45,609 bases of DNA from a phage: assembly GCA_030873995.1 (NCBI GenBank), contig GCA_030873995.1_4701.1, one strand, 5' to 3'. The notes under the pieces are model-generated. The model did not search any database. It saw only the letters and a list, made by a program, of their open reading frames with translations, and was not told the DNA's origin. Position numbers and translations under genes: made by a program. Shown in pieces: positions 28,558-45,609 of the stretch; position 1 is the first letter of the stretch; the number at the start of each line of letters is the position of its first letter.

Positions 28558-28653
28558 TTAGATGGTAGCTTCTTAGTCTGGATAGGTTAAACCTAGGGTA
28601 TTCTTTTGAGTACCCTATAATGTAACCTAACTAACTAAATGAGGATTAATAAC

Positions 28654-29013
28654 ATGGCTATGTCTAATATGACTTACTCTCAGGTTTACAACAACGCTCA
28701 TGCTGCATTAGTTGAACGTATCTGGAATGATGCTATTGATTGTATTGATAACGCACATGATGCAATCCATGATGTGGCGGATAGTGCTGTACCAATCTAT
28801 TATGCTGACATCTTCTCCGTGATGGCGAGTGAAGGAATTGATCATTTCTTCGAAGACTCCGGCCTGATGCCAGACACTAAGGATGTAACGGTAGTATTGC
28901 AAGCCCGTATCTATGAGCAACTCACAATTGATCTATGGGAACGTGTTCAGTATATGATTGTTGAATACATCAACTCCGCCGAATATTTAGAAGAAGAAGA
29001 AGAGGAAGAATAA
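28654..29013 (+). CDS. ocr: Ocr (T7 gp0.3) DNA-mimic anti-restriction protein
   Basis: MAMSNMTY...[49 protein letters not shown] closely matches T7 Ocr as recalled; poly-Glu tail; GAGGA RBS. Confidence 0.9.
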
Positions 29014-30482: not shown

Positions 30483-33110
30483 ATGCAAGACCTACACGCT
30501 ATTCAACTTCAACTTGAAGAAGAAATGTTTAACGGAGGTATCCGTCGCTTTGAAGCGGACCAACAACGCCAGATTGCATCCGGTAATGAATCCGACACGG
30601 CATGGAATCGCCGCTTATTGTCTGAGTTAATCGCGCCAATGGCTGAAGGCATTCAGGCATACAAGGAAGAGTATGAAGGTAAAAGAGGCCGTGCACCGCG
30701 TGCATTAGCTTTCATTAACTGCGTAGAAAACGAAGTGGCAGCATATATCACGATGAAAATCGTTATGGATATGCTGAACACGGATGTAACCTTGCAGGCT
30801 ATAGCCATGAATGTAGCTGACCGCATTGAGGACCAAGTACGTTTTAGCAAGCTGGAAGGTCACGCCGCCAAATACTTTGAGAAAGTTAAGAAGTCACTTA
30901 AGGCAAGTAAGACTAAATCATATCGCCATGCGCACAACGTAGCGGTCGTGGCTGAGAAGTCAGTAGCTGACCGTGACGCTGATTTCTCTCGCTGGGAGGC
31001 GTGGCCTAAAGATACCTTGCTACAAATCGGTATGACCTTGCTAGAAATACTGGAAAATAGTGTATTCTTCAATGGTCAGCCTGTCTTTCTTCGCACCTTG
31101 CGCACTAATGGTGGCAAGCATGGCGTTTACTACTTACAGACTAGCGAACACGTGGGTGAATGGATAACTGCATTTAAAGAGCACGTAGCTCAGCTGAGTC
31201 CAGCCTATGCGCCTTGCGTTATTCCTCCTCGTCCGTGGGTTTCTCCGTTTAATGGTGGCTTCCATACCGAGAAAGTGGCGAGTCGTATTCGTCTGGTTAA
31301 AGGAAACCGCGAGCACGTCCGCAAGCTGACCAAAAAGCAAATGCCAGCGGTTTACAAGGCTGTTAACGCTTTGCAGGCGACTAAGTGGCAGGTTAATAAA
31401 GAGGTTTTGCAGGTAGTAGAGGACGTTATCCGTCTCGACCTTGGTTATGGTGTGCCTTCCTTTAAACCGCTCATCGACCGTGAGAACAAGCCAGCTAATC
31501 CAGTGCCGTTAGAGTTCCAGCACCTGCGAGGCCGTGAACTTAAAGAGATGCTAACGCCGGAACAATGGCAAGCCTTCATCAACTGGAAAGGCGAATGTAC
31601 CAAGCTGTATACCGCTGAAACTAAGCGCGGCAGCAAGTCGGCGGCAACCGTTCGTATGGTCGGGCAGGCCCGTAAATACAGCCAGTTTGACGCAATATAC
31701 TTCGTGTATGCACTGGATAGCCGTTCACGCGTTTATGCGCAATCTAGCACGCTCTCGCCGCAATCAAACGACTTAGGCAAGGCATTGCTCCGTTTTACCG
31801 AAGGGCAGCGTCTTGATAGCGCTGAGGCGCTTAAGTGGTTTTTGGTGAACGGGGCGAATAACTGGGGTTGGGATAAGAAAACTTTTGACGTGCGCACCTC
31901 TAACGTGCTGGATGGCGAATTTCAAGACATGTGCCGCGACATTGCAGCCGATCCGCTGACCTTCACTCAATGGGTAAATGCTGATTCCCCTTACGGCTTC
32001 CTTGCATGGTGCTTTGAATATGCGCGTTATCTGGATGCACTGGATGAAGGCACGCAAGACCAATTCATGACGCACCTACCCGTCCATCAAGACGGTAGTT
32101 GCTCTGGTATCCAGCACTATAGCGCGATGTTACGCGATGAAGTAGGTGCGAAAGCAGTAAACCTTAAGCCTTCTGACTTCCCTCAAGATATTTATGGCGC
32201 GGTTGCGCAGGTTGTTATCCAGAAGAATTACGCCTACATGAATGCAGACGATGCAGAGACTTTCACATCTGGAAGCGTCACACTTACAGGTGCAGAACTG
32301 CGTAGCATGGCTAGTGCGTGGGATATGATAGGAATAACTCGCGGATTGACCAAAAAGCCCGTAATGACACTACCTTATGGCAGCACACGTCTAACCTGCC
32401 GTGAATCAGTGATTGATTATATCGTTGATTTGGAAGAAAAAGAGGCCCAACGAGCTATTGCGGAAGGGCGTACCGCCAATCCTGTACACCCTTTTGATAA
32501 TGACCGTAAGGACAGCCTGACACCTAGCGCAGCTTATAACTATATGACAGCTTTAATCTGGCCTTCTATTTCGGAAGTGGTTAAAGCTCCTATAGTGGCA
32601 ATGAAAATGATTCGTCAGCTTGCCCGTTTCGCAGCTAAAAGGAATGAAGGCTTAGAGTATACCTTGCCTACTGGCTTCATCTTGCAACAAAAGATTATGG
32701 CTACTGATATGCTCCGCGTATCCACTTGCCTGATGGGAGAAATCAAGATGAGTCTACAGATTGAAACGGACGTAGTGGATGAAACGGCTATGATGGGCGC
32801 TGCTGCTCCTAACTTTGTGCATGGTCATGATGCCAGTCACCTTATCTTAACAGTCTGCGACCTTGTTGATAAAGGGATTACATCTATCGCAGTCATTCAT
32901 GATTCTTTCGGTACTCACGCAGGCCGTACAGCCGATCTTCGTGATAGCTTAAGGGCAGAAATGGTGAAGATGTATCAAGGCCGTAATGCCCTGCAAAGCC
33001 TGTTAGATGAGCATGAAGAACGCTGGTTAGTAGACACCGGAATCCAAGTGCCAGAGCAAGGAGAGTTTGACCTTAACGAAATCTTAGTATCTGACTATTG
33101 CTTCGCATAA
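30483..33110 (+). CDS. single-subunit DNA-dependent RNA polymerase (T7/SP6 type)
   Basis: 875 aa; [17 protein letters not shown] and HDSFGT catalytic motifs; C-terminus ends CFA. Confidence 0.95.
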
Positions 33111-33118
33111 TATTAATA

Positions 33119-33149
33119 GGCCATTCCTTCGGGAGTGGCCTTTTCTTTT
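33119..33149 (+). terminator. intrinsic terminator after the RNAP gene (early terminator analog)
   Basis: 9-bp stem GGCCATTCC/GGAGTGGCC with UUCG tetraloop, then TTTTCTTTT. Confidence 0.8.
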
Positions 33150-33183
33150 ACCTACTACCGGTAACATTTCATTAACATAAAGT

Positions 33184-33199
33184 GTCTCACATGTGAGAC
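33184..33199 (+). repeat. 16-bp perfect palindrome (copy 2), abuts promoter 33202
   Basis: Read directly. Confidence 0.9.
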
Positions 33200-33201
33200 T
33201 T

Positions 33202-33224
33202 ATTTACCGGACACTATAGGATAG
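33202..33224 (+). promoter_or_regulatory. phage-RNAP promoter (origin-flanking, upstream copy)
   Basis: ATTTACCGGACACTATAGGATAG; C at -11; palindrome 33184..33199 abuts it. Confidence 0.75.
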
Positions 33225-33364
33225 CCGTCGGAGACGGGAAAGAAAGGGAAGATAAAGGATATAAAGGAAGTAATAGGTATTAAAGGTTATATAGGTTATC
33301 TAGGAATACCTATTACCTTCTTCTTTCCTCTTATTACCACTTAGAGGAAGGGCAGATCTAGGTT
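33225..33364 (+). other. candidate primary origin of replication: AT/purine-rich repeat region between twin phage promoters
   Basis: GAAAGAAAGGGAAGATAAAGGATATAAAGGAAG and AGGTTATATAGGTTA repeats with a long imperfect inverted repeat; same arrangement as the T7 primary origin. Confidence 0.45.
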
Positions 33365-33380
33365 GTCTCACATGTGAGAC
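33365..33380 (+). repeat. 16-bp perfect palindrome (copy 3), abuts promoter 33386
   Basis: Read directly. Confidence 0.9.
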
Positions 33381-33385
33381 TTCGT

Positions 33386-33408
33386 ATTTACCGGACAGTA
33401 TAGATAAG
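33386..33408 (+). promoter_or_regulatory. phage-RNAP promoter (origin-flanking, downstream copy)
   Basis: ATTTACCGGACAGTATAGATAAG; G at -5; palindrome 33365..33380 abuts it. Confidence 0.6.
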
Positions 33409-33433
33409 ACTAACTTACTTTGGAGATTTAACC

Positions 33434-33562
33434 ATGCGTAACTTTGAGAAGATGACCCGTAAAGCTAACCGTTTTGACATGGAAGAAGGGCAGAAGAAAG
33501 GCAAGAAGCTGAATAAACCTGTCCGTGACCGTGCATCTAAACGCGCTGCGTGGGAGTTCTAA
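33434..33562 (+). CDS. T7 gp1.1-like small basic protein
   Basis: 42 aa MRNFEKMTRKANR... matches the T7 gp1.1 N-terminus as recalled; same position after RNAP and twin promoters. Confidence 0.6.
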   Translation: MRNFEKMTRKANRFDMEEGQKKGKKLNKPVRDRASKRAAWEF

Positions 33563-33565
33563 GTT

Positions 33566-35554
33566 ATGGCTATTATTCAGAATGTACCGTGTCCTGCTTG
33601 CCAAAAGAACGGACATGATATTACTGGCAATCATTTAATGATCTTTGACGACGGGGCAGGGTACTGTAACCGTGGTCACTTCCATGATAACGGTAAACCT
33701 TATTACCACAAGCCGGAAGGTGGCATCGAGATAACCGAGTTACCTATTACTGGCAATATCAAATATACACCTTCTCAATTCAAAGAAATGGAGAAGGAAG
33801 GGAAGATAAGCGACCCTAAGCTACGCGCCATCGCACTTGGTGGTATGCGTATGAAAGACCGTTGGGAGGTTATGAATGAGCAAGAAAGGGCAGACCAAGA
33901 AGCAGAGTGGAAACTTGATGTTGAATGGTTCCTCACGCTTAAGCGTAAGAACCTTGTATCCCGTCACATTCGAGGTGACATCGCAGCAATGTACGATGTG
34001 CGCGTTGGACACGATGAAGAGGGAAGAGTCAACCGTCACTATTATCCACGATATGAAAAGGGTGTGTTTGTTGGAGCAAAATGCCGGACGTTGCCGAAGG
34101 ATTTTAAGTTCGGACACCTAGGTAAACTCTTTGGTATGCAAGACCTTTTCGGTATGAACACTTTGTCTCACGTGTTAGACAAGGGGAGACGAAAGGATTG
34201 CTTGCTTATTGTAGGCGGTGAACTTGATGCACTAGCAGCGCAGCAGATGCTCCTTGATTCTGCCAAAGGTACTAAGTGGGAAGGTCAGCCATACCATGTA
34301 TGGTCTGTCAATAAAGGTGAGTCTTGCCTTGAAGAGATAGTGCAAAACCGTGAGCACATAGCCCAATTCAAGAAGATTATATGGGGCTTTGATGGCGACG
34401 AGGTGGGGCAGAAGCAGAACCAACAAGCTGCTCGCCTGTTTCCTGGCAAATCCTACATCCTCGAATATCCATCTGGTTGCAAAGATGCTAACAAGGCATT
34501 GATGGCTGGCAAGGCTAAAGAGTTTGTAGATGCATGGTTTAATGCCAAGTCATCTGATGAAGTCTTTGGTAGCCAGATTAAATCTATCGCATCTCAAAGG
34601 GATAAGCTCAAGGCTGCACGTCCAGAGCAAGGACTATCATGGCCTTGGCCTAAGCTGAACAAGGTAACGCTAGGTATTCGTAAGAACCAACTTATCATTG
34701 TAGGCGCAGGCTCTGGTGTAGGTAAGACTGAGTTCCTTCGTGAAGTAGTTAAGCACCTCATTGAAGAACACGGTGAATCTGTAGGCATCATTTCTACAGA
34801 AGACCCGATGGTCAAGGTGTCCCGTGCTTTTATCGGCAAGTGGATTGATAAGCGTATTGAGTTACCGCCAACCAACGACCCGAAAGAAGATGGATACCGT
34901 GAGGTGTTCGACTACACCGAGGAAGAGGCTAACGCCGCCATTGATTATGTAGCTGATACAGGTAAGCTGTTTGTAGCTGACCTAGAGGGTGACTATTCGA
35001 TGGAAAAGGTAGAGCAAACTTGCCTAGAGTTTGAGGCTATGGGCATTTCTAATATCATCATTGATAACTTAACGGGGATTAAATTAGATGAGCGTGCTTT
35101 TGGTGGGAAGGTTGGTGCACTTGATGAATGCGTCAAGCGGATTGGTACTATCAAAGACCGACACCCGGTTACTATATTCCTTGTATCACACCTTACACGT
35201 CCTCCGGCAAACCGTACCCAACACGAAGAAGGTGGCGAGGTTATCCTTTCTGACTTCCGAGGTTCAGGCGCTATCGGATTCTGGGCATCTTACGCCTTGG
35301 GGATTGAGCGTAATACAAGAGCTGAAACGCTTGATGAACGGACTACCACGTACATCTCATGTGTCAAAGACCGCGACCAAGGTATCTACACTGGAACCAA
35401 GGTCATGCTTAAGGGTGACATTCAAACCGGACGTTTAATGGAACCACAAGCCCGTACTAAGTCATTTGATACAGGTGAAGCAAGGCAACAAGAAGTGCCG
35501 GATTTACCGGACACTATAGAAGAGACAACTTTTGACGATGAACAGGAGTTTTAA
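33566..35554 (+). CDS. DNA primase/helicase (gp4-like)
   Basis: 662 aa; N-terminal Cys4 zinc ribbon, Walker A GAGSGVGKT; acidic C-terminus ending DDEQEF. Confidence 0.9.
   Translation: MAIIQNVPCPACQKNGHDITGNHLMIFDDGAGYCNRGHFHDNGKPYYHKPEGGIEITELPITGNIKYTPSQFKEMEKEGKISDPKLRAIALGGMRMKDRWEVMNEQERADQEAEWKLDVEWFLTLKRKNLVSRHIRGDIAAMYDVRVGHDEEGRVNRHYYPRYEKGVFVGAKCRTLPKDFKFGHLGKLFGMQDLFGMNTLSHVLDKGRRKDCLLIVGGELDALAAQQMLLDSAKGTKWEGQPYHVWSVNKGESCLEEIVQNREHIAQFKKIIWGFDGDEVGQKQNQQAARLFPGKSYILEYPSGCKDANKALMAGKAKEFVDAWFNAKSSDEVFGSQIKSIASQRDKLKAARPEQGLSWPWPKLNKVTLGIRKNQLIIVGAGSGVGKTEFLREVVKHLIEEHGESVGIISTEDPMVKVSRAFIGKWIDKRIELPPTNDPKEDGYREVFDYTEEEANAAIDYVADTGKLFVADLEGDYSMEKVEQTCLEFEAMGISNIIIDNLTGIKLDERAFGGKVGALDECVKRIGTIKDRHPVTIFLVSHLTRPPANRTQHEEGGEVILSDFRGSGAIGFWASYALGIERNTRAETLDERTTTYISCVKDRDQGIYTGTKVMLKGDIQTGRLMEPQARTKSFDTGEARQQEVPDLPDTIEETTFDDEQEF
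35502..35524 (+). promoter_or_regulatory. phage-RNAP promoter embedded in the primase/helicase C-terminal coding tail
   Basis: ATTTACCGGACACTATAGAAGAG, encodes DLPDTIEE. Confidence 0.75.
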
Positions 35555-35715
35555 TGGAAATTATTAAACCAGTATTGAATATCGGTATTGAGATCCTATT
35601 CATGCTTGTGATCGCAGATTATGCTGCACGATATGGCTTCAAGAAAGCAGTGAAACTTATCGTTGCATCTGGTTTTATGATGTCAATGTTCTTTATTGTA
35701 ACACGCCTTATCTAG
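35554..35715 (+). CDS. small membrane protein (53 aa)
   Basis: TAATG coupling to the primase/helicase stop; two hydrophobic segments. Confidence 0.45.
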   Translation: MEIIKPVLNIGIEILFMLVIADYAARYGFKKAVKLIVASGFMMSMFFIVTRLI

Positions 35716-35732
35716 TGTATTTATCAGGGCTT

Positions 35733-35748
35733 GTCTCACATGTGAGAC
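35733..35748 (+). repeat. 16-bp perfect palindrome (copy 4), extended stem
   Basis: Read directly. Confidence 0.9.
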
Positions 35749-35787
35749 AGGCTCTTATTAAGTACATTAAATAACTGGAGATTGATT

Positions 35788-36471
35788 ATGTATAAATTAG
35801 TATTGAATGTAGGTGATTATGTTCGTAACATCAATGAAGCCTCACGTCGTTATCGTTGCCGTGGTGTAGTGGCTCGTGTAAGTGAGAACATGTATCATGT
35901 AGAATATGATGATGGTATTAAGGCTTCTTATCACAAGAAAACCGCACATAAATATCTTGAAAAGGTTGTAGAGGTAAACAATCAATGTAAGTGCATACAT
36001 GATGAGGTTTGCGATAAATGTGCTCGCCAGATGCTTAAGAATTTCCTAGCCCCTCTTTATTATGGTGCTGGTCCTCAAACACTAGCAGAGTACATGGCAG
36101 AAAAGAAAACCACACTCAAGAAAGAGCGTCGCAATGTAATCACTGGTAAGACTCAAAGTGGGATGATTAAGCAATGTGGCACTGCATTAGGTGTTACACA
36201 GTTCAATACTCGTGCATTGGGTAAATCCACAGGGCAAGCTATGGTGAAAATTGGTGAAGCTATGATGCACCCAAATGTGCCTGTGCGAATCTTGGATGTT
36301 GACCATGCAATCACAGAGCATGGCACACCACGGCGTGTAGCTAATAATCATTTCGCCGACACTATAGAAGGTATTATTCGTAAGCAAGGGTTGAAGGGTC
36401 TTCACATCTTAAATGGTGAAGAATTACTGTACCTACCTATCGTTACTGAAGAAACATACGTGAATATCTAA
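35788..36471 (+). CDS. hypothetical protein (227 aa)
   Basis: GGAG RBS before ATG 35788; Cys cluster CKCIHDEVCDKC; contains a degenerate promoter-like site. Confidence 0.55.
   Translation: MYKLVLNVGDYVRNINEASRRYRCRGVVARVSENMYHVEYDDGIKASYHKKTAHKYLEKVVEVNNQCKCIHDEVCDKCARQMLKNFLAPLYYGAGPQTLAEYMAEKKTTLKKERRNVITGKTQSGMIKQCGTALGVTQFNTRALGKSTGQAMVKIGEAMMHPNVPVRILDVDHAITEHGTPRRVANNHFADTIEGIIRKQGLKGLHILNGEELLYLPIVTEETYVNI
36350..36372 (+). promoter_or_regulatory. degenerate promoter-like site inside CDS 35788..36471
   Basis: ATTTCGCCGACACTATAGAAGGT; four mismatches at -13 to -10. Confidence 0.25.
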
Positions 36472-36481
36472 GGAGTTAATC

Positions 36482-36700
36482 ATGACTAAGGTATTAATTT
36501 ATATGCGTGGACCTCATAAATGCTATGCAGTTGTAGCACCAAATGGCGTTAAGCCTTATCGTACTTCAAAAAGATTGGCATTAATAGGTGCTAGTAGTAG
36601 TGCAAGTTTCCAAATGGAACTTTTTGGTCATTGGACTGAAAGGCAATTCCGTGAGGATTTTAAAGTCATTGGCAGTTTCATGGTGAAATATGCAGAATAA
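36482..36700 (+). CDS. hypothetical protein (72 aa)
   Basis: AAGGAG RBS. Confidence 0.5.
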   Translation: MTKVLIYMRGPHKCYAVVAPNGVKPYRTSKRLALIGASSSASFQMELFGHWTERQFREDFKVIGSFMVKYAE

Positions 36701-36866
36701 ACATAGTCTTAGAATGTTCGATGGTCATGAAGACCTGCAAGCCAAGATTACTAACCAAGCCTTCCTGTTCGCACAGTTAACTATGGCTGAGGCCAAGAAG
36801 AATAGTCTCACTCGTGAACAGGTTATCAAGGAAAGTGAAGTGAAACGTAAGATTCGCAGTCGATAA
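36690..36866 (+). CDS. small ORF (58 aa)
   Basis: Overlaps the upstream stop; followed by an extended hairpin; below track threshold. Confidence 0.3.
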   Translation: MQNKHSLRMFDGHEDLQAKITNQAFLFAQLTMAEAKKNSLTREQVIKESEVKRKIRSR

Positions 36867-36876
36867 GTCAAGGGTT

Positions 36877-36892
36877 GTCTCACGTGTGAGAC
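36877..36892 (+). repeat. 16-bp near-palindrome GTCTCACGTGTGAGAC (copy 5), extended stem
   Basis: Read directly. Confidence 0.9.
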
Positions 36893-36923
36893 AGCCTTTT
36901 ATCATGTTGATTGGAGGTGCATT

Positions 36924-37031
36924 ATGCCACGTGATTATGATTCTGATTGGGACTACTATGACTCAATGAATCCAAAACCAGAACGTTCAGATGATTACTA
37001 CGAAACAGAGGCAATGTATGAAAACTATTAA
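36924..37031 (+). CDS. small acidic Tyr/Asp-rich peptide (35 aa)
   Basis: GGAGGTG RBS; MPRDYDSDWDYYDS... Confidence 0.35.
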   Translation: MPRDYDSDWDYYDSMNPKPERSDDYYETEAMYENY

Positions 37032-37236
37032 AGTCAGTAAGGTTTGCTCTTGCGGTAAAGGTTATCGCAGTCGTATTGATGGTAAGTGTGGACATTGTAG
37101 GTCTAAGAAAGAGGCTGCTTTGTTTGACAAGTACCACAATGAATTAGCCTATAACTACCCACATCTAACACCTAATTCTTTATTAGGGCTTGGTTATAGG
37201 GCTAAATACTTTGGAGCAATCTATGAAATCAATTGA
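37018..37236 (+). CDS. small zinc-ribbon-like protein (72 aa)
   Basis: CSCG...CGHC motif; AGAGG RBS; overlaps the DNAP start. Confidence 0.45.
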   Translation: MKTIKVSKVCSCGKGYRSRIDGKCGHCRSKKEAALFDKYHNELAYNYPHLTPNSLLGLGYRAKYFGAIYEIN

Positions 37237-39769
37237 TTGGAAGAAGGAGGCAGAAGGTCGTATCCTCGTGATGGATGCGGAAGCTAAAGGACTCCTTGAC
37301 GCTATCCGATATGGACACCGTGAAGATGTGCATATCATTTGCTGCATGGATTTGCTTACTACCGAGGAGTTTCTCTTCTTTGACCCGTATGAGATGCGTG
37401 ACCCTGAAGCAAGAGAACGCCTGAAGGAATGGGAAGGTCATCAAGATGGAACCTTGGTTGACGGTGTTAACTTCCTGAAGCACTGTGAGGCTATTGTGTC
37501 GCAGAACTTCCTAGGGTATGACGGTCTTCTCTTTGAGAAAGCATTCCCTGATATTTGGAAAGGCTTTAACTATACCGAGAAGCGCGGTAAGGGCAGACTC
37601 CGTGCTGACCTGTGTCCGGTGCGAGTCATGGATACGCTGGTGATGAGTCGCCTGTTAAACCCCGATAGACGCCTTCCTCCGCAAGCATATGCCAAAGGTA
37701 TGGGTAACGTCGCCCCTCACTCAATTGAGGCGCACGGCATCCGTATAGGTCGCTATAAACCGGAGAACGAGGACTGGTCTAAACTAACTGACCACATGGT
37801 TCACCGTGTACGTGAGGACGTGGCGATTGGTCGTGACTTGTTCCTCTGGCTCTTTAACGGGGAATGGATGGAGCACAAACGCCGTGGCGTGAATAAACGC
37901 ACGGGCCTAGGCATTGAGACAGCCTTCCACATGGAGTCCATTGTGGCGCTGGAGATGAGCCGTCAGGCCGAGCGCGGGTTCCGTCTGGACATCGACAAGG
38001 CTTTGGCCCGATGCGAAGAATTGGACGCTAAGATTGATGAGACAGTCGCAGCGTTCCGCCCTCACATGCCTATGCGTATCAAGTCTAAACCTTTTAAACC
38101 GGAAGAAAAGAATGAAGTATGCCAACGCGCAAATGAGTATGGAGCTAGCAACAATATACCTACTGTCCTTGACCCCTCACACTTTCTTCATGCCGAGAGA
38201 CGAGGAGATCGCAAGACAGTATGGAGTGTCACTACTAAGTCTGGTGATTGGTCGGCTAGTGTCAAGAAAGACTTTCCTCACCTTAGAGGAAACCGTAATG
38301 ACACGCCAAGTATCAAGTGGATTGGTGCTTACTCGCCTGTTACTTTCGAAGAGATTCCCTTGGGTAACAGGGATACAGTTAAGCAAGTGCTCTATGATTA
38401 TGGATGGAAAGGTGTTGAATTTAACGATACCGAGCAAGCGCATCTCGATGAGTATGGCGTATTACCAAAACCTTGGAGTGGAAAGATAAATGAAAAGTCT
38501 CTTACTTTATGGCAAGAGAGAGCCGCACGTGAAGGTAAAACAGTACCCGATTGGTGCTTGGGTATCGCTGCATGGTACATACTCGTATCCCGTCGTGGTC
38601 AGATACTCAACCGTGGTGACGTTGAAGCCTTCAACGAGAAGGGAACGTGGCCCTCGCAGGCTGGTGTACGAAAGTGTCGCGGCCTTGTACCTGTAGCATT
38701 CAACAAGGAGCTAGGAATCAATGCGCAGCAATACTACGAAAGGTACGGATGCTGGCCTACGTCAGACAAGGATGACGGGGAGTGGCGTGTTCCAGCTGTT
38801 GCTATTAGCATTGGCACTTCTACGTTCCGTATGCGTCATCGTAACGTGGTTAATATTCCTGCCCGTGGCTTGTATCCTTTACGTGATTTATTCATAGCAG
38901 GTAAAGGCAAGCTAATCCTTGGTTGTGACGGTGCAGGTCTTGAACTGCGCGTCCTGTCTCACTTCATGAATGACCCTGAGTACCAAGAGATTGTATTGCA
39001 TGGTGACATCCATACACATAACCAGATGAAGGCTGGTCTTCCTAAGCGTGACATGGCGAAGACGTTTATATACGCTTTCCTCTATGGCTCTGGTATAGCC
39101 AACCTTGCAGCAGTATGTGGTGTTACCGAGGAAGAAATGAAGGAAGTTGTGGCAAGATTCGAGATTGAACTGCCGTCTCTTGCACGTCTTCGTGAGAATG
39201 TTATCGCACAAGGTAACAAGTTTGGCTACCTGCAAGCACCTGATGGGCATTGGGGTCGCATCCGCATGTCTGGTGGTGAACTTAAAGAGCACACGATGCT
39301 TAACGTATTACTCCAGATGACTGGCTCTTTGTGTATGAAATATGCATTAGTCAAGGCATTTGCAGTAATGCGCAAGGAAGGTGTAGCCTTGGATGCTATG
39401 GGAAATCCTTGTGGTGTGGCTAACGTGCATGATGAAATCCAGATGGAAGTTCCTGAAGAGGAGGTCTTGTATCTTAACTACGACCTACCTTTCACCTTAG
39501 ATGGGTTCGAAACAGAGAAGGCTGCCGTGCAAGCAGTGTTCGATGCAGAGGAGAAACGTGTTCATGTGGATTCTGAAGGACGTATGTGGTCTGCTGCAAA
39601 CCTCGTTAGTGTTGATGCTGATGCTGGTGTATTGCATTGCCAGCGCCGTTATCACCGTGCAGGTCATATCATTGCCGACGCCATGACTTGGGCAGGGCAG
39701 TATCTGAAGATGCGTTGCCCGATGGCAGGCGAATATAAGATTGGCGCAAGTTGGAAGGAAACACACTGA
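37223..39769 (+). CDS. DNA polymerase (family A, gp5-like) with 3'-5' exonuclease domain
   Basis: Exo motif VMDAEAKGL; pol motifs DGAGLELR, RDMAKTFIYAFLYGSG, VHDEIQ; start placed at RBS-supported ATG 37223. Confidence 0.9.
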   Translation: MKSIDWKKEAEGRILVMDAEAKGLLDAIRYGHREDVHIICCMDLLTTEEFLFFDPYEMRDPEARERLKEWEGHQDGTLVDGVNFLKHCEAIVSQNFLGYDGLLFEKAFPDIWKGFNYTEKRGKGRLRADLCPVRVMDTLVMSRLLNPDRRLPPQAYAKGMGNVAPHSIEAHGIRIGRYKPENEDWSKLTDHMVHRVREDVAIGRDLFLWLFNGEWMEHKRRGVNKRTGLGIETAFHMESIVALEMSRQAERGFRLDIDKALARCEELDAKIDETVAAFRPHMPMRIKSKPFKPEEKNEVCQRANEYGASNNIPTVLDPSHFLHAERRGDRKTVWSVTTKSGDWSASVKKDFPHLRGNRNDTPSIKWIGAYSPVTFEEIPLGNRDTVKQVLYDYGWKGVEFNDTEQAHLDEYGVLPKPWSGKINEKSLTLWQERAAREGKTVPDWCLGIAAWYILVSRRGQILNRGDVEAFNEKGTWPSQAGVRKCRGLVPVAFNKELGINAQQYYERYGCWPTSDKDDGEWRVPAVAISIGTSTFRMRHRNVVNIPARGLYPLRDLFIAGKGKLILGCDGAGLELRVLSHFMNDPEYQEIVLHGDIHTHNQMKAGLPKRDMAKTFIYAFLYGSGIANLAAVCGVTEEEMKEVVARFEIELPSLARLRENVIAQGNKFGYLQAPDGHWGRIRMSGGELKEHTMLNVLLQMTGSLCMKYALVKAFAVMRKEGVALDAMGNPCGVANVHDEIQMEVPEEEVLYLNYDLPFTLDGFETEKAAVQAVFDAEEKRVHVDSEGRMWSAANLVSVDADAGVLHCQRRYHRAGHIIADAMTWAGQYLKMRCPMAGEYKIGASWKETH

Positions 39770-39885
39770 TGGATAGGCTTGACATTGTTTACCTATTCTT
39801 CACTTTCTTTCTTACACTCCTTATGCTTGCTTGTTATGGGAGTATGAGACTAGATATACCTGATGAAGAAGAGGGTTACGACTAA
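39769..39885 (+). CDS. tiny membrane peptide (38 aa), paralog 1
   Basis: ATG overlaps the DNAP stop (TGATG); hydrophobic core then acidic DIPDEEEGYD tail. Confidence 0.4.
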   Translation: MDRLDIVYLFFTFFLTLLMLACYGSMRLDIPDEEEGYD

Positions 39886-39983
39886 TGCAAACTGCTTTTA
39901 TTATTCTTGGTATCATATTATTTATGGTAGTATTCTGGGCTTTCTCTGGCATTGACCCAGATTGTGATGGTAACTACGACTGA
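39885..39983 (+). CDS. tiny membrane peptide (32 aa), paralog 2
   Basis: TAATG coupling; hydrophobic core then GIDPDCDGNYD tail similar to 39769..39885. Confidence 0.4.
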   Translation: MQTAFIILGIILFMVVFWAFSGIDPDCDGNYD

Positions 39984-40021
39984 GTTATACTCAAGGTCAC
40001 TTACGAGTGGCCTTTATGAAT
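39984..40021 (+). promoter_or_regulatory. RNase III-type processing site candidate
   Basis: GTTATACTCAAGG - hairpin GGTCACT-TACG-AGTGGCC - CCTTTATGAAT. Confidence 0.45.
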
Positions 40022-40051
40022 AACTTACTCCCACACATTTTGTCTAACATG

Positions 40052-40074
40052 ATTTACTGGACACTATAGAAGGA
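40052..40074 (+). promoter_or_regulatory. phage-RNAP promoter
   Basis: ATTTACTGGACACTATAGAAGGA exact consensus; +1 G at 40069. Confidence 0.85.
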
Positions 40075-40138
40075 AAGCCTAGGTAATCTAGGTTTATAAG
40101 GTAGTATGGGTAATTAAGTAAATATAGGAGATATAAAT

Positions 40139-40516
40139 ATGTCAATGGTAACTACTCTGGTATTCGTAGCTCAATACTTTCGTGGTTTGGCTAACAAGTT
40201 CAAAGCTAAGGCTATCAAAGCTATTGAGTCTCGCATTGAAGCAGTACATGCAGAGCAGTTTGAAGTTGAAGAACATCGTAGTTCTCAAATGATTGACTGC
40301 CACAATCGCTACTATGCATCTCGTGATGACCTTAATGCACGCCAAGTCAAAGAGGTTGAAGAGATGCTGGCACGTCACCAGCAAGAGCGAGACAGCCTGA
40401 AAGCTGAATTTGAAGAGAACAAGGCATCCATCGCCCTTGTACATCAAGCCGCATCTGACAGCCTGAAGAAAGAGATTGTTATGCTGGAAATTGAGTTAGA
40501 CAACCTGACCAAATAA
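40139..40516 (+). CDS. hypothetical coiled-coil protein (125 aa)
   Basis: Own promoter at 40052 and AT-rich leader with GGAG RBS. Confidence 0.55.
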   Translation: MSMVTTLVFVAQYFRGLANKFKAKAIKAIESRIEAVHAEQFEVEEHRSSQMIDCHNRYYASRDDLNARQVKEVEEMLARHQQERDSLKAEFEENKASIALVHQAASDSLKKEIVMLEIELDNLTK

Positions 40517-40537
40517 TTACTGGACACTATAGAACAA
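40515..40537 (+). promoter_or_regulatory. phage-RNAP promoter
   Basis: AATTACTGGACACTATAGAACAA; +1 G at 40532. Confidence 0.8.
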
Positions 40538-40593
40538 TAGGTCGACTTAGTTCGGCCTATGATTGTGTAGTGTAACAATAGGAGACTAAATAA

Positions 40594-41400
40594 ATGGCAC
40601 GTGGTGATTTTGATTTTGGTGCTCAGGTTACTAAAGCTGAAGGTAAGGTTTTTAAGAACCCTGAAGTTGGTGATCATGAAGCAGTAATCTCTGGCATCAT
40701 TCATGTGGGTTCCTTCCAAGATATCTTTAAGAAAGGTAATACCACTGAAGTTAAGAAGCCAGCAAACTTTGTTCTTGTTAAGATTGTACTGATGGGTGAC
40801 GATGACAAGAACGAAGATGATTCTCGCATGGAACAATGGATGGCTGTTCCTCTGAAGTCTGGTGATAAGGCAACACTGACTAAGTTCCTGAATGCAGTTG
40901 ACCCCAAAGAATTGCTTGGTGGCTTCGATGATTTTATCGGGGAATGCCTGACTGCAACTATGGTTGGCTCTGGTGACAAGAATGACGATGGTTCATTCAA
41001 GTATGTTAACTGGAAAGGATTCGGTGGTATGCCTGACAAGCTTAAGAAACTTGTCATTGCTCAGGTTGAAGAAGAGGGTCTGTCTATGACAGGTCACATC
41101 ACCTTCGACAAGCTGACCAAAGAAATCCTTGATGACATTCCTGCTAACTTGGTACGCCAATACTTCCTTAATGAAACACCTCGTGGTAAGAACCTGTCTG
41201 TTGCTGGTTCTCACGTAGAAGCAATCATTAAAGCTGCTCGTGAAGAAGACCCAGAGTGGAAGAAGGCTAAGAAGAAAGACGAGGAAGATGCTACCCCAGC
41301 TAATCGTAAATCTCTGGATACTGGTGAGTCTGTTCCGCAGGAAGTACCTGAAGCAGAAGATACTCCTGCACCGGAGATGGATGAGGACGCGGAATACTAA
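40594..41400 (+). CDS. hypothetical protein with acidic C-terminal tail (possible ssDNA-binding protein)
   Basis: 268 aa; own promoter 40515; AGGAG RBS; C-terminus EMDEDAEY resembles gp2.5-type acidic tails. Confidence 0.55.
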   Translation: MARGDFDFGAQVTKAEGKVFKNPEVGDHEAVISGIIHVGSFQDIFKKGNTTEVKKPANFVLVKIVLMGDDDKNEDDSRMEQWMAVPLKSGDKATLTKFLNAVDPKELLGGFDDFIGECLTATMVGSGDKNDDGSFKYVNWKGFGGMPDKLKKLVIAQVEEEGLSMTGHITFDKLTKEILDDIPANLVRQYFLNETPRGKNLSVAGSHVEAIIKAAREEDPEWKKAKKKDEEDATPANRKSLDTGESVPQEVPEAEDTPAPEMDEDAEY

Positions 41401-41409
41401 GGAGGGAGA

Positions 41410-41628
41410 ATGAAAGTACAAATCGTAACCCTGCACTGCAAGAAGGGTATCACAACGCTTGGAGGTGGCACTTTCCACTCTTTCTCCGAAGGGGAGATTT
41501 ATGCTGACCTGCACTACATCTGGCGCGACGGACAGCACGTGGTGAACTACAGCGACCCAGCTACGGGGAAACGCCACGGCGTATCGCTTCCGGCGCATGA
41601 CATTGCTCAGGTGAACACAGTTTTATAA
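41410..41628 (+). CDS. hypothetical protein (72 aa)
   Basis: AAGGAGGGAG RBS. Confidence 0.55.
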   Translation: MKVQIVTLHCKKGITTLGGGTFHSFSEGEIYADLHYIWRDGQHVVNYSDPATGKRHGVSLPAHDIAQVNTVL

Positions 41629-41629
41629 A

Positions 41630-41645
41630 GTCTCACGTGTGAGAC
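41630..41645 (+). repeat. 16-bp near-palindrome GTCTCACGTGTGAGAC (copy 6), 15 bp upstream of promoter 41661
   Basis: Read directly. Confidence 0.9.
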
Positions 41646-41660
41646 AAATTGGTGTCCGGT

Positions 41661-41683
41661 ATTTACTGGACACTATAGAAGAG
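41661..41683 (+). promoter_or_regulatory. phage-RNAP promoter
   Basis: ATTTACTGGACACTATAGAAGAG exact consensus; palindrome 41630..41645 upstream. Confidence 0.85.
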
Positions 41684-41733
41684 AAGAATTTTAATCGGCG
41701 ATAATGCCATAACCAACAAAAGGAGAATTTAAT

Positions 41734-42105
41734 ATGTTCAAGATTGAAACTATCGTAAACCGTGTTGTTAAAGGTGCTGCTCTGGTATCCGTTGAGTCTT
41801 TCATTATCGTCGATGAAGCTGATCAACTGGTAGCTGGTACTAAGGCTTACGATACCCGTGAAGAAGCTCAGGCTAAGATTGACAGCATGGGTAACTTCGC
41901 TGCTGGTCTGGAGTTCGCTCGTGCTTGCTTCCCTGAGCAGGCTGACAAAGCTCAGATTGGTAAGGCTAATATCGTAGCTGAATATCTGGATTGGGTTGCT
42001 GCTGGTAAACCAGTGAAAGAAGTTAAGGCTGCTGAAGAAGCTGAAGCTCCAGCAGAAGAAGTAGCTGCACCGGAAACTCCGGTAAGCGAAGAGGAAGAAT
42101 TTTGA
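41734..42105 (+). CDS. hypothetical protein with acidic C-terminal tail ending EEEEF
   Basis: 123 aa; own promoter 41661; AAAGGAG RBS. Confidence 0.6.
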   Translation: MFKIETIVNRVVKGAALVSVESFIIVDEADQLVAGTKAYDTREEAQAKIDSMGNFAAGLEFARACFPEQADKAQIGKANIVAEYLDWVAAGKPVKEVKAAEEAEAPAEEVAAPETPVSEEEEF

Positions 42106-42169
42106 TAATAGCAGGTGTTGCCTCTGTTAGTCCTGGTTGACTATCACGCTCATCTCATCTAATGCCCTG

Positions 42170-42196
42170 TCTGCCTTAGTGTAGGCAGGGTCTTTT
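42170..42196 (+). terminator. hairpin plus T-run, terminator candidate
   Basis: 7-bp stem with 6-nt loop followed by TCTTTTG. Confidence 0.35.
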
Positions 42197-42222
42197 GCGT
42201 AATAGTTATTGGAGAATGAATT

Positions 42223-42513
42223 ATGCCGACTATTGAAGAACGTTTCCTGATTCACGTGAGCTTCTCATCCATACATCTTGGTTATCTTATCACTATTCTC
42301 TTAGGTGAAGAGATTTATCTGCATAACCACTTAATACCAGAGTATGTATGTCACCGAGATAAGATACACCCTACTAATTGGGCGAAAGAGTGGCTGCGTG
42401 AACATGTGCTGAAGGAGTGGCCTACATGCGACCAAACTTCGACTTCGGAGCTACAGTATCGGAAGACAATAACCTGTTGCTGTGGCCGACTGAAGGTAAT
42501 CGAATCGCTTTAA
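42223..42513 (+). CDS. hypothetical protein (96 aa), 3' end overlaps the exonuclease start
   Basis: GGAGAA RBS; preceded by a hairpin terminator candidate. Confidence 0.4.
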   Translation: MPTIEERFLIHVSFSSIHLGYLITILLGEEIYLHNHLIPEYVCHRDKIHPTNWAKEWLREHVLKEWPTCDQTSTSELQYRKTITCCCGRLKVIESL

Positions 42514-43451
42514 TAGATGCTGATATGTTACCCTATATTGTAGGATATACTATCAGTGACATGACTTATGTACGAGCCACAACTCGTGTTAAGTCAGGAC
42601 AAGTCCCATCAATCAAGGATACACCTGAATGTAAGCAAGCATGTGACCGTGTGAACTCCTTGCTTAACTCTTGGGTGTATGCAGCAGAGTGCGATGCAGC
42701 TAAGTTATTCATGACGAAATCAGAAGCTAACTTCCGTGTTCGCCTAGCATTCACCAAGCCTTACAAGGGTCAACGTAAGACCGAGAAGCCTCCATTCTTC
42801 TATGAATTGCGAGAGCATCTCTTAGAGGTTCATGGTGCAATCTTGGCTGATGGTGAGGAAGCAGATGACCTAATGAGCATCGCACAATGGGACAGCCATC
42901 GCCGCTTCCAGCAAGATACAGGTAACGAGTTCCCTATCGGTAGTCCAGAGCATAAAGCATTCTCTGATACTTGCATCGTTTCCTTAGATAAGGATTTGAT
43001 GATTGTTCCCGGTTGGCATCTACAGCCGGGAGGTGAGAAGAAATGGGTAGAGCCTATGGGTTGGCTTGAGCTACGCCGCAAGGCTAATGGTCAAGTGAAA
43101 GACCTTAAAGGTGCTGGCCTCATGTTCCACTATGCACAGATGATTATTGGTGATGACATAGATAATTATGCTGGCATACCGGGACGTGGTGCTAAATATG
43201 CCTATGCTCTTCTCAAAGACTGTAAGACAGAGAAAGAATTGTACATGGCAGTGCTTGGTGCATACAAGGCTAAGTTCGGTCATGGACAAGTTAAGATTAA
43301 GAATTACCGAGGTGGTTATCGTATCGGCAAAGCCTTTGACCTGATGCTTGAATGTGGTCGCCTAGCTCACATGGCAAGATTCAAAGGGGACATATGGCGG
43401 GCCGATAAGAACCCAATCTTGTGGGGAGATGACGATGGATGGATGCATTGA
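42426..43451 (+). CDS. 5'-3' exonuclease (gp6-like, FEN family)
   Basis: Motifs RIALIDADML, GEEADDLMSIA, SLDKDLMIVPG, GDDIDNYAGIPG; GAAGGAG RBS before ATG 42426. Confidence 0.8.
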   Translation: MRPNFDFGATVSEDNNLLLWPTEGNRIALIDADMLPYIVGYTISDMTYVRATTRVKSGQVPSIKDTPECKQACDRVNSLLNSWVYAAECDAAKLFMTKSEANFRVRLAFTKPYKGQRKTEKPPFFYELREHLLEVHGAILADGEEADDLMSIAQWDSHRRFQQDTGNEFPIGSPEHKAFSDTCIVSLDKDLMIVPGWHLQPGGEKKWVEPMGWLELRRKANGQVKDLKGAGLMFHYAQMIIGDDIDNYAGIPGRGAKYAYALLKDCKTEKELYMAVLGAYKAKFGHGQVKIKNYRGGYRIGKAFDLMLECGRLAHMARFKGDIWRADKNPILWGDDDGWMH

Positions 43452-43872
43452 CCATGGGTGTAAAGGTTATGGCATGGGCTACGCTACTGCCTTCTATAAA
43501 GGTAGATGTGGTAAGAAGAAATATACCACTAAGCACAGGCTAGTTTACTGTAAGCACCATAACATTCACCCTGAAGATTTGCCTAAAGATATTGTTATTA
43601 GGCACAAATGTGATAATGCACGTTGTATCAATCCTTTACATTTAGAGTCTGGTACACATCAAGATAACATGAAGGACATGGCTGTCCGTGGCAGAGCCTA
43701 CAAAGGAGGGATGCCAGGAGAAAAGAATGGCAGATGTGTGCTTTCTGATTTACAAGTAGCAGAATTACGCGCCTTACGTGCTAAAGGGTTTACTTGTAAA
43801 GCTCTAGCTGAACGGTATGGCATAGGTACTACTCAAGTATCTAGACTAGCAAGAGGAGAACAACGTGCGTAA
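43435..43872 (+). CDS. HNH endonuclease with C-terminal helix-turn-helix
   Basis: HKCDNARCINPLHLESGTHQDN motif; GGGGAG RBS before ATG 43435. Confidence 0.7.
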   Translation: MDGCIDHGCKGYGMGYATAFYKGRCGKKKYTTKHRLVYCKHHNIHPEDLPKDIVIRHKCDNARCINPLHLESGTHQDNMKDMAVRGRAYKGGMPGEKNGRCVLSDLQVAELRALRAKGFTCKALAERYGIGTTQVSRLARGEQRA

Positions 43873-44275
43873 GATGAAGCAATCTGAACTTGGTGAAGTT
43901 CGTGATATACTGTGTGAAAGACAAGGTTGGCGTTGCCCTATTTGTGGAGGTCATTTAAAACTTATCTCTAAAGCAAATAGGGTCGTTGACCATTCACACG
44001 ATAATGTAGGTGCAGTCCGTGGTGTATTATGCCGTGGGTGCAATGGAGGTATCGGCAAGATAGAAGCGTATGCACAGTCGTATTGTAAGGCTGGCAATAA
44101 TACGCTTGAGGTTATCAAAGTTCTACGTAATCTTGCGGACTACTTAGAACTCCATCGCACACCGCAGACAGAGTGGATTTATTACAAACATCAAACGGAG
44201 GCAGAGAAACGAGAGGCTAAGAATCGTAAGGCTCGCCTTGCTTATGCAAGAAAGAAGGAGGCTAAGAGTGGCTAA
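43865..44275 (+). CDS. recombination endonuclease VII-like (Holliday junction resolvase)
   Basis: CPICGG...VVDHSHDN...RGVLCRGCNGG signature. Confidence 0.75.
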   Translation: MRKMKQSELGEVRDILCERQGWRCPICGGHLKLISKANRVVDHSHDNVGAVRGVLCRGCNGGIGKIEAYAQSYCKAGNNTLEVIKVLRNLADYLELHRTPQTEWIYYKHQTEAEKREAKNRKARLAYARKKEAKSG

Positions 44276-45275
44276 ACTTCGTAGCCTTTATAAAGACTCC
44301 GAGGTGCTTGATGCAATCGAGCAAGCTACCGACGAGAAAGGTAATGTTAACTATAATGAGATGGCGAAGATCCTATCTAGCCACCCTGTGGGTAAGAAGA
44401 TCACCCGTCAACTTGCTCGGTATTGGCATGGTCAATTTAAGAAGACCAAGAAGAATGGCGATTACTACCAGACTCTTCTGCAAGAGGATAAGCGTATCAA
44501 AGAAGAGCGTAAGCTCAGGACTCCTGACCGCTACGAGGATTTGGCTATTGTACCATTGCCTGACTCGCCTCATCGAAGTGTACTGGTAATCCCTGATACT
44601 CATGCACCTTATGAGCACCCAGATACCCTAGAGTTCCTTGCAGCCGTGGCGGCACGTTACCGTCCAGACACAGTGGTACACCTAGGAGATGAGGCAGACA
44701 AACATGCCCTGTCATTCCACGATTCGGACCCAAATCTGGATAGTGCTGGCATGGAGCTAGAGAAGGCTCGTGTCTTCATGCACAAGTTGCACAAGATGTT
44801 CCCTGTGATGCGCCTGTGTCATTCTAATCACGGCTCTATGCACTTCCGTAAGGCAAGCGCCAAGGGTATTCCAGTGCAATATCTTCGCACCTACCGTGAA
44901 GTCTTTTTCCCAAATGGAGGTGGCGACCAGTGGGATTGGCAGCATACACATGTTCTTGAGTTGCCGAATGGTGAACAAGTGGCATTCAAGCATCAACCTG
45001 CTGGCTCTGTCCTAGCAGATGCAGCGCATGAGCGTATGAACCTTGTGTGTGGTCACTTGCACGGTAAGATGTCTGTGGAGTACGCACGTAATACACATGA
45101 ACAGTATTGGGCTGTGCAAGGTGGCTGCTTAATTGATGAGTCATCCCGTGCATTTGCCTATGGGCGTGAGTCTAAATACAAGCCAGCATTAGGTTGTGTG
45201 GTTATTCTGGAGGGTGTACCTCATATTGTCCCGATGCAAACCAATAGCGACAACCGTTGGATTGGCAAGATTTAG
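44268..45275 (+). CDS. calcineurin-like metallophosphoesterase with about 100-aa N-terminal extension
   Basis: Motifs IPDTH, GDEAD, SNHG, GHLHG; AAGGAGG RBS 7 nt before GTG 44268. Confidence 0.65.
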   Translation: MAKLRSLYKDSEVLDAIEQATDEKGNVNYNEMAKILSSHPVGKKITRQLARYWHGQFKKTKKNGDYYQTLLQEDKRIKEERKLRTPDRYEDLAIVPLPDSPHRSVLVIPDTHAPYEHPDTLEFLAAVAARYRPDTVVHLGDEADKHALSFHDSDPNLDSAGMELEKARVFMHKLHKMFPVMRLCHSNHGSMHFRKASAKGIPVQYLRTYREVFFPNGGGDQWDWQHTHVLELPNGEQVAFKHQPAGSVLADAAHERMNLVCGHLHGKMSVEYARNTHEQYWAVQGGCLIDESSRAFAYGRESKYKPALGCVVILEGVPHIVPMQTNSDNRWIGKI

Positions 45276-45292
45276 TTGACACTATAGAACAA
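45270..45292 (+). promoter_or_regulatory. phage-RNAP promoter, SP6-like variant
   Basis: ATTTAGTTGACACTATAGAACAA; differs from the local consensus at -12 and -10. Confidence 0.6.
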
Positions 45293-45375
45293 AGGGCTAG
45301 GTAAGACTTTATCGGCTGGCGTATCCAAATGATATTGCACTAGCCCTTGATTGTATAGTGAATGGAGGATTCAAT

Positions 45376-45609
45376 ATGTCACACTATGAATGTAAGAAGT
45401 GTCATAAGCGTTATGATTACTGTACTTGTGGTCAAGAGAAAACATCTTTTAAAGTTGGAGACAAGGTATTTCGTAATGAAAAAGATTCGATTCCTTGGAA
45501 TCAATACTGCAAAGAAGCTGGTATTGACCCTGATAGCCCTGTAACCATAGATGATATTGATGGCATTAACTTGTGCTTTCGTGAGGTGAGGGGTACAGGT
45601 TGGGATTCC
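45376..45609 (+). CDS. nucleotide kinase gp1.7-like, N-terminal Cys-rich part; runs off the window end in frame with 1..270
   Basis: GGAGG RBS; Cys-rich N-terminus (CKKCH...CTCG); no stop before the window end; promoter 45270 upstream. Confidence 0.5.
   Translation, partial: MSHYECKKCHKRYDYCTCGQEKTSFKVGDKVFRNEKDSIPWNQYCKEAGIDPDSPVTIDDIDGINLCFREVRGTGWDS

Follow-up and report, generated by a model that had tools for sequence, protein, structure and literature searches.

What are the acidic, aromatic-ended C-termini that recur on replication proteins of SP6-like phages, and do they help to identify the binding protein for single-stranded DNA (SSB) that the annotations of these genomes lack? We addressed this question in a phage DNA of 45,609 nucleotides (NCBI GenBank assembly GCA_030873995.1, contig GCA_030873995.1_4701.1; the whole stretch is referred to here as the window). 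Judged by sequence comparison, the window is a circularly permuted Vectrevirus (K1E/K1-5/SP6-like) genome of ~45.6 kb; its region 33566..42105 (8.5 kb) shares 94-98% DNA identity with the Vectrevirus phages EEc2, KMB14, VEc3 and K1E. Four open reading frames (ORFs) are at issue, whose K1E equivalents are gp9 (33566..35554), gp16 (40594..41400), gp18 (41734..42105) and gp25 (1366..1581), the last three being labelled hypothetical proteins in the K1E annotation. An initial annotation of the window had likened their tails to those by which T7 gp4 and gp2.5 dock onto the DNA polymerase, and had supposed that one of the two unassigned proteins of the region is the SSB and that the other may compete for the polymerase. 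Our analysis indicates that the gp16-like protein is very probably the SSB, and that the tip which it shares with the primase/helicase and with the gp18-like protein is a conserved peptide motif.

A conserved acidic-aromatic tip on three replication-module proteins

Translation reproduced all four quoted C-termini: DDEQEF for the primase/helicase, PAPEMDEDAEY for the gp16-like protein, SEEEEF for the gp18-like protein and EEETDDFI for ORF 1366..1581. The description of these ends as acidic and aromatic stood for the first three, where the ending is conserved, but not for the fourth, whose aromatic is not: its last residue is Ile, with Phe in the penultimate position, and its positional counterparts in other lineages have acidic ends with no terminal aromatic. 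Under a rule requiring at least four acidic and no basic residues among the last eight and a terminal F, Y or W, a rule chosen post hoc, 3 of 46 window proteins pass; among 8-mers from the interior of these proteins, the frequency of a match is 2.3e-4 (binomial P ~2e-7). Since this rule was set after the data had been seen, conservation is the real and independent test of the tips.

For this purpose, nine phages of at least five genera, drawn from Molineuxvirinae, Colwellvirinae, Gajwadongvirus and unclassified Autographiviridae, were compared: the window, K1E, Vibrio AS51, Marinomonas CPP1m, Pseudomonas MR4, Ulina01 (Pseudomonas), Aeromonas Tola, Edwardsiella WAG25P1 and Klebsiella 6939. All of them have retained [D/E]-x-E-[F/Y]-COOH as the tip of the primase/helicase, the gp16-like and the gp18-like proteins. 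The primase/helicase ends in F in 9/9 phages and in E-F in 8/9 (A-F in Ulina01), the gp16-like protein in E-[F/Y], with two residues beyond in Ulina01, and the gp18-like protein in [E/T/A/Q]-F, with one residue beyond in the same phage. Of 45 gp16-like homologs (35-98% identity), 98% have an aromatic last residue and 96% an acidic residue at position -2, and an extended motif, P-A-P-x-[M/L]-D-x-x-x-E-[Y/F], is kept. For the gp18-like protein, EEEF forms the C-terminus of 120/120 close homologs; 26 representatives of 50%-identity clusters were found among 1.84 billion proteins, and in the 22 that are full-length (25-78% identity) most have a terminal F behind a hypervariable Ala/Pro/Glu linker. 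When the gp16-like and gp18-like families were compared with hhalign, the last seven residues alone could be aligned. Taken together, enrichment and conservation in the nine phages bear out the view that the tails are non-random C-terminal motifs of the T7 gp4/gp2.5 type.

It is thus scarcely credible that these ends arose by chance, simply because early and middle phage proteins are acidic in composition. Some window proteins do end acidic without an aromatic, namely the Ocr-like anti-restriction protein (28639..29013, LEEEEEEE) and ORF 40..270 (...IDEDI), and the tail of 1366..1581 is likewise not conserved as an aromatic tip. Because the Ocr-like tail is acidic yet non-aromatic, acidic ends alone must be regarded as common in this proteome. 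Against chance, however, stand the enrichment given above, the retention of the terminal aromatic over 25-98% identity while adjoining linker positions vary, and the presence of the tip on the same three proteins in nine phages; for these three, conservation already contradicts a chance origin.

The initial annotation had overlooked a fifth case, the DNA ligase, whose end is DEPDFF. This end takes the form D-(V/F)-[F/Y] in the nine phages, and 74% of 120 ligase homologs end in F/Y preceded by D or D-V; the T7 ligase has no F/Y end of this type. The ligase may be a fourth carrier of the tip in a shortened form; since the end directly follows motif VI, it may also belong to the fold (the OB domain) and not be a free peptide.

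The gp16-like protein as the candidate SSB

The gp16-like protein corresponds to phrog_862, a group of 'unknown function'. In Pfam scans of the window protein and 42 homologs, no family was assigned to any of them, only scattered sub-threshold matches being obtained, and the bacterial SSB domain of the oligonucleotide/oligosaccharide-binding (OB) fold, PF00436, was absent. An AlphaFold2 model built from the 42 homologs has a mean predicted local distance difference test (pLDDT) score of 80, with the core above 90. In this model, residues 1-18 are disordered (pLDDT <50), the OB core takes up about residues 20-145, with a beta-barrel (~26-144) whose strands and helix follow one another as in an OB fold, and a helical subdomain (~148-230) is followed by a disordered linker and tail. 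The best match of the OB core among solved structures is an ssDNA-binding (single-stranded DNA-binding) protein. The core is structurally similar to PrgE (PDB 8S4S), at 15% identity, and Foldseek also returned a LUZ19-like protein (E = 6e-10). One UniRef entry names a 60%-identical Klebsiella-phage homolog as an SSB; the other names examined read 'hypothetical'.

Of the two unassigned proteins, one of which had been expected to be the SSB, it is thus the gp16-like protein that very probably fills this role, given the predicted OB fold, the ssDNA-binding structural match, the position in the replication module, the codon bias described below and the finding that no other window protein scanned matched an SSB family. 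The gp18-like protein, in contrast, is not an SSB by fold. ssDNA binding by the gp16-like protein is a prediction.

Several relationships were considered and rejected. As a sequence homolog of T7 gp2.5 the gp16-like protein failed (BLASTP E = 1.7, no gp2.5-type profile match), and in structure comparison its OB core was not specifically like that of gp2.5 (1JE5) or of the Enc34 SSB. Searches of PDB sequences with the single sequence or the profile gave only noise, for example antibody light chains, MltB and ribosomal P0. Sequence homology to PrgE and the lactococcal-phage SSBs was not found either.

In phiKMV, the positional analog of the gp16-like protein is gp21 (14042..15091 of the phiKMV locus), a protein of 349 aa with its own promoter, encoded between the polymerase and exonuclease genes; its tail is Ala/Pro/Val-rich, not acidic, and has no terminal aromatic. 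Sequence homology between the two was rejected (hhalign E = 0.008 but probability 5%), the link consisting of the Foldseek match to the LUZ19-like protein alone.

An N-terminal motif shared with the exonuclease

A second peptide, FD[F/Y]G[A/G]x[V/L/I], is common to the N-termini of the gp16-like protein (MARGDFDFGAQV) and of the 5'-3' exonuclease, whose true start lies at 42426 (MRPNFDFGATVS). Each of the nine phage loci has precisely two matches to F-[D/N]-[F/Y]-G-[A/G], which are invariably the two N-termini in question, and the T7 and phiKMV loci have none; counting three frames of the window, chance would give ~0.035 matches. Which variant is present tends to follow the lineage, with FDFGA paired with FDFGA and FDYGG with FDYGG, and a metagenomic relative shows the same arrangement with the variant FDAGA. 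Because synonymous codons differ between the two copies, the constraint on the motif acts at the protein level. In the gp16-like family, F6 and G9 are among only ten invariant residues at 25-78% identity and D7 is nearly invariant; the invariant F6 and G9 fall in the segment left disordered by AlphaFold2.

In T4 gp32, the N-terminal peptide is the cooperativity peptide, and in PrgE an N-terminal tail binds the neighbouring subunit. By analogy with the PrgE tail, we propose that the N-peptide of the gp16-like protein would mediate SSB-SSB contacts and that the exonuclease would copy it in order to dock on SSB-coated DNA. Alternatively, both N-peptides may bind a third protein, for example the gp18-like protein.

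The shared motif also bears on the possibility that the gp16-like protein is mainly a recombination partner of the exonuclease, acting in annealing or loading, with the host SSB used in replication. The location of its gene 1 kb upstream of the exonuclease in every phage examined fits this idea, as does the annotation of T7 gp2.5 as both an ssDNA-binding and an annealing protein. We nevertheless judge it unlikely, since the predicted expression of the gp16-like protein is stoichiometric and its helicase-like tail suits a replisome component; moreover, replicative and recombination roles are not exclusive, as gp2.5 illustrates.

The gp18-like protein and its expression signals

The gp18-like protein consists of a domain of ~95 residues (a beta-hairpin and three helices), a disordered Ala/Pro/Glu linker and the tip. 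No significant family match was found for it by sequence profile or fold, a single-sequence search of the PDB returned no matches, and Pfam scans of family members gave only scattered sub-threshold matches. No homology to T7 gp2.5 was detected, and the idea that the protein is a duplicate of the helical subdomain of the gp16-like protein was dropped, as hhalign aligned the terminal seven residues only.

The claim that both unassigned genes have their own promoters proved right: an SP6-type core lies just upstream of each (Table 1). The core GACACTATAGAA occurs at 11 sites in the window against 0.29 expected, and the promoter of the gp18-like gene, ATTTACTGGACACTATAGAAG, corresponds to the consensus. 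This gene also has an AAGGAG ribosome-binding site and is directly followed by a hairpin and U-run resembling an intrinsic terminator (-18.3 kcal/mol, z = -3.7), the best in the region scanned (33000..45609). Codon usage points in the same direction. The codon adaptation index (CAI), calculated with E. coli weights, is 0.668 for the gp18-like gene (first), 0.494 for the gp16-like gene (second) and 0.478 for the capsid gene. Two measures independent of these weights are the effective number of codons, in which the gp18-like gene has the lowest value of the genome (34.9) and the gp16-like gene the fourth lowest (41.3), and a capsid-referenced CAI, by which the gp16-like gene is third. Both proteins are thus apparently very highly expressed, the gp18-like protein at the highest level in the phage.

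Between gene 17 and the promoter of the gp18-like gene, ~30 nt upstream of this promoter, lies a 16-bp perfect palindrome, GTCTCACGTGTGAGAC. The palindrome GTCTCAC(A/G)TGTGAGAC is present in six exact copies, at 13017, 33184, 33365, 35733, 36877 and 41630, of which the last five are intergenic, and in degenerate copies at 27637 and 34165, where 0.05 matches are expected at the two-mismatch search setting. Possible functions are those of an RNA hairpin for processing or pausing and of a site bound by a protein.

What would a protein that is apparently so abundant do? One possibility is that the gp18-like protein is aimed at the host, either mimicking the host SSB tip (DDDIPF) to occupy host SSB-interacting proteins or playing the role of T7 gp5.5, an H-NS inhibitor encoded between genes 5 and 6. 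T7 gp5.5 is abundant. It resembles the gp18-like protein in map position, size class and terminal Phe, and the location of the gp18-like gene between the DNA polymerase and exonuclease genes recalls T7 genes 5.3-5.9. Codon bias that is the highest in the genome, above that of the capsid gene, fits a titrating and not a catalytic role; no known fold is recognised; and DNA binding is unlikely, because globular domain and tail are both acidic. The host SSB tip, too, is acidic with a terminal Phe (PMC5872125). On the other side, T7 gp5.5 ends in REVF, which is not an acidic tail, and shows no sequence similarity to the gp18-like protein (hhalign probability 0.1%, on which homology was rejected). 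The tip of the latter (E-F) is nearer those of the phage helicase and the SSB candidate than the host IPF. In addition, phages of hosts as varied as Vibrio, Marinomonas, Pseudomonas and Escherichia have inherited the gene along with that of the gp16-like protein, and this co-inheritance across diverse hosts indicates a phage-internal partner. We therefore consider a host target conceivable but on balance doubtful.

Presumed docking partner and proposed mechanism

The tail of T7 gp2.5 binds a basic patch at the front of the DNA polymerase, and PDB 6P7E contains a bound DTDF peptide that imitates the tail of gp4 (PMC12339929). Deletion of F232 of gp2.5 abolishes the interaction with the polymerase (bioRxiv 10.64898/2026.02.22.705581), and the tail competes with the OB domain (PMC10359462). 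The window primase/helicase resembles T7 gp4 (...DTDF) in combining Toprim and DnaB-like domains in one chain (Pfam DnaB_C, 1.3e-14; Toprim_2, 3.2e-4, just below its cut-off), and its C-terminus, ...TTFDDEQEF, has a hydrophobic residue ~7-10 positions before the terminal F, as in the W...F of T7. Its family A DNA polymerase, the presumed docking partner, shares 28% identity with T7 gp5 and carries a thumb insertion of similar length at the position of the thioredoxin-binding domain of T7, preceded by ~35 extra residues, as well as a further insertion of ~60-80 residues near the C-terminus.

From these parallels we infer that the tips dock on the DNA polymerase. In the joint reading that we favour as rather probable, the replication module would use a C-terminal acidic-aromatic code, carried behind flexible linkers by the primase/helicase, the gp16-like protein (as the SSB) and the gp18-like protein (as a carrier that is not an SSB), with the ligase contributing a shorter D-[F/Y] end. 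The gp16-like protein would be built like T4 gp32 or T7 gp2.5: a peptide at the N-terminus would serve interactions, the OB-fold core would bind ssDNA, and the acidic tail would have the double task of covering the DNA-binding surface and attracting partners. A replisome hub, in all likelihood the DNA polymerase, would offer a single pocket, basic and hydrophobic, on which the tips converge. Helicase, SSB and gp18-like protein would bind this pocket exchangeably and in a mutually exclusive manner; the competition suspected by the initial annotation would take this form. As an apparently very abundant, free-standing carrier of the tail, the gp18-like protein may modulate access to the hub or bring in a ligand of its globular domain.

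Several observations weigh against this proposal. The front basic patch of T7 (K587/K589/R590/R591; KWKRRW 587-592) belongs to a stretch of 14 residues of which the window polymerase shows a deletion or replacement, as do all four SP6-like and related polymerases aligned, the window's included, and the thumb-loop lysines of T7 are not evidently conserved. Because of these two differences, the docking site need not be on the polymerase at all, and because the patch is deleted, the receptor site for the tail must differ from that of T7. Furthermore, the tails of distant gp16-like homologs have a net charge of just -2 to -4, so that conservation is limited to the tip; a minority of gp18-like homologs have no terminal F or have 1-6 residues after it; and phiKMV has no such acidic tips on its helicase, its ligase or its positional analog of the gp16-like protein, which makes the tip code lineage-specific.

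The same tails might instead act mainly inside one protein or among its copies, as electrostatic shields of its own DNA-binding surface, providing autoinhibition and turnover on ssDNA, their likeness being convergence on a generic acidic end. In T7 gp2.5 the tail and ssDNA do compete for the OB surface, and the tail makes dissociation faster (PMC10359462), and in the AlphaFold2 model of the gp16-like protein the last ~18 residues have a pLDDT of 57-61 against 42-46 in the linker, a weak hint of fold-back. However, no DNA-binding surface in need of a shield is evident on the gp18-like protein, and conservation concerns not net charge but the final two to seven residues, in which a terminal aromatic is obligatory, a pattern typical of a pocket-fitting peptide. 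Shielding alone thus appears improbable, and both functions coexist in T7.

A further extension of the docking model would add the N-peptide, so that two peptide codes, the C-terminal tip and the N-terminal motif, would wire replication and recombination, with the gp18-like protein as a free-standing 'tail protein' tuning or adapting the hub or hijacking host readers of the SSB tip. We offer this extension as speculative and rather unlikely.

Gene order and genome layout

The order of genes from gene 9 (primase/helicase) to gene 18 is as in K1E, and all genes lie on the plus strand. In the loci compared, the order DNA polymerase, gp16-like, gp18-like, exonuclease is conserved, both unassigned genes always lying between the polymerase and exonuclease genes; the contigs of distant gp18-like homologs, only 1.1-1.4 kb long, agree with this arrangement. 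The two genes were found in 216 (gp16-like) and 213 (gp18-like) phage records, with a nearly identical host and taxon breakdown. The features are collected in Table 1.

Three differences and boundaries of the layout can be added. K1E gene 15.5, between genes 15 and 16, is missing from the window (40517..40593 compared with K1E 14396..14695), and the stop codon of gene 15 runs straight into the promoter of the gp16-like gene. An ORF for an HNH endonuclease of 147 aa (43429..43872) lies between the exonuclease and endonuclease VII genes; as K1E has no gene at that place, insertion of a homing endonuclease is the probable explanation. The window ends cut through the nucleotide kinase gene (1..270 and 45291..45609), and ORF 40..270 represents its C-terminal part only.

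Table 1. Positions of the tip-bearing proteins, their neighbours and the associated expression signals in the window.
Feature	Position	Strand	Basis or detail
DNA ligase, ATP-dependent	447..1394	+	Pfam ligase domains; tip DEPDFF 1374..1391
Small protein after ligase (K1E gp25 homolog)	1366..1581	+	End EEETDDFI; weak member
Primase/helicase (K1E gp9 homolog), 662 aa	33566..35554	+	Pfam, K1E annotation; tip DDEQEF 35534..35551
Family A DNA polymerase (K1E gp13 homolog), presumed docking partner	37223..39769	+	Alignment with T7 gp5
SP6-type promoter of gp16-like gene	40517..40537	+	Core GACACTATAGAA at 40523..40534
gp16-like OB-fold protein, 268 aa, SSB candidate	40594..41400	+	Tip PAPEMDEDAEY 41365..41397; FDFGA 40609..40623
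16-bp perfect palindrome	41630..41645	.	GTCTCACGTGTGAGAC; between gene 17 and promoter of gp18-like gene; among about seven intergenic copies
SP6-type promoter of gp18-like gene, consensus	41661..41681	+	ATTTACTGGACACTATAGAAG; core GACACTATAGAA at 41669..41680
gp18-like small acidic protein, 123 aa	41734..42105	+	Tip SEEEEF 42085..42102
Intrinsic-terminator-like hairpin and U-run	42164..42197 (hairpin 42164..42191)	+	Directly after gp18-like gene
5'-3' exonuclease (K1E gp20 homolog; distant T7 gp6 homolog)	42426..43451	+	FDFGA 42438..42452

Relation to known systems

Acidic C-terminal docking tips on SSBs and helicases are a known kind of feature. The closest parallel is T7 gp2.5: like it, the gp16-like protein combines a predicted OB core with a disordered acidic tail and a conserved terminal aromatic (Phe232 in gp2.5), and is the product of a highly expressed middle gene in an Autographiviridae replication module whose helicase has a matching tail. 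Unlike the T7 gp4 system, however, the polymerase here has the K587/K589/R590/R591 patch deleted. The bacterial SSB tip (E. coli DDDIPF) is similar in being acidic, in ending in Phe after a disordered linker and in that nothing else of the tail is conserved, its presumed reader being a basic, hydrophobic pocket; the window tip differs in standing on several proteins and not on one hub protein, in reading E-F and not I-P-F, and in occurring without PF00436.

The OB core of PrgE, a protein of plasmid pCF10 related to lactococcal phage SSBs, is structurally similar to that of the gp16-like protein. Unlike the latter, PrgE has 144 aa, has no long acidic tail described, and binds dsDNA (double-stranded DNA) as well as ssDNA. 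The three-module logic proposed for the gp16-like protein resembles that of T4 gp32, which has three domains including an acidic C-domain (PMC5892887); gp32 differs in its zinc-containing OB-variant core, in having no terminal-aromatic tip, and in showing no homology.

What appears to be new, or at least unannotated, is fourfold. First, the missing SSB of SP6-like and related phages can very probably be assigned, on the strength of the model, to a family of OB-fold proteins that sequence does not connect with gp2.5. Second, the same tip is carried by an apparently abundant orphan protein without a recognisable fold and, in a shortened form, by the ligase. Third, the T7 receptor patch is absent. 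Fourth, an N-terminal motif is shared with the exonuclease. The annotations of SP6-like genomes name no SSB, and almost all gp16-like records and cluster names examined read 'hypothetical protein'. No paper assigning an SSB to these phages was found in the literature searched, which excluded the Dobbins 2004 and Scholl 2004 genome papers, where an earlier comment on the tails is possible.

Significance

SP6, K1-5 and K1E belong to the classical phages; laboratories use SP6 RNA polymerase as a standard reagent, and among the K1 and Klebsiella relatives are candidates for therapy. For this group, the OB-fold assignment would fill the SSB gap. Phage SSBs trigger several bacterial defence systems, for example DARNA and Retron-Eco8, and knowing the SSB gene matters for interpreting escape mutants in SP6-like phages. 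The motif common to the candidate SSB and the exonuclease provides a testable model for the recruitment of a flap or recombination nuclease to SSB-coated DNA. The gp18-like protein, an orphan that is conserved, carries this tip as well and is apparently extremely abundant, offers a concrete target in the search for a new replisome regulator or host-takeover factor. Finally, the T7 idea of exchangeable tails would extend to a replisome whose polymerase has no T7 receptor patch, and would offer a natural comparison for the evolution of replisome hubs.

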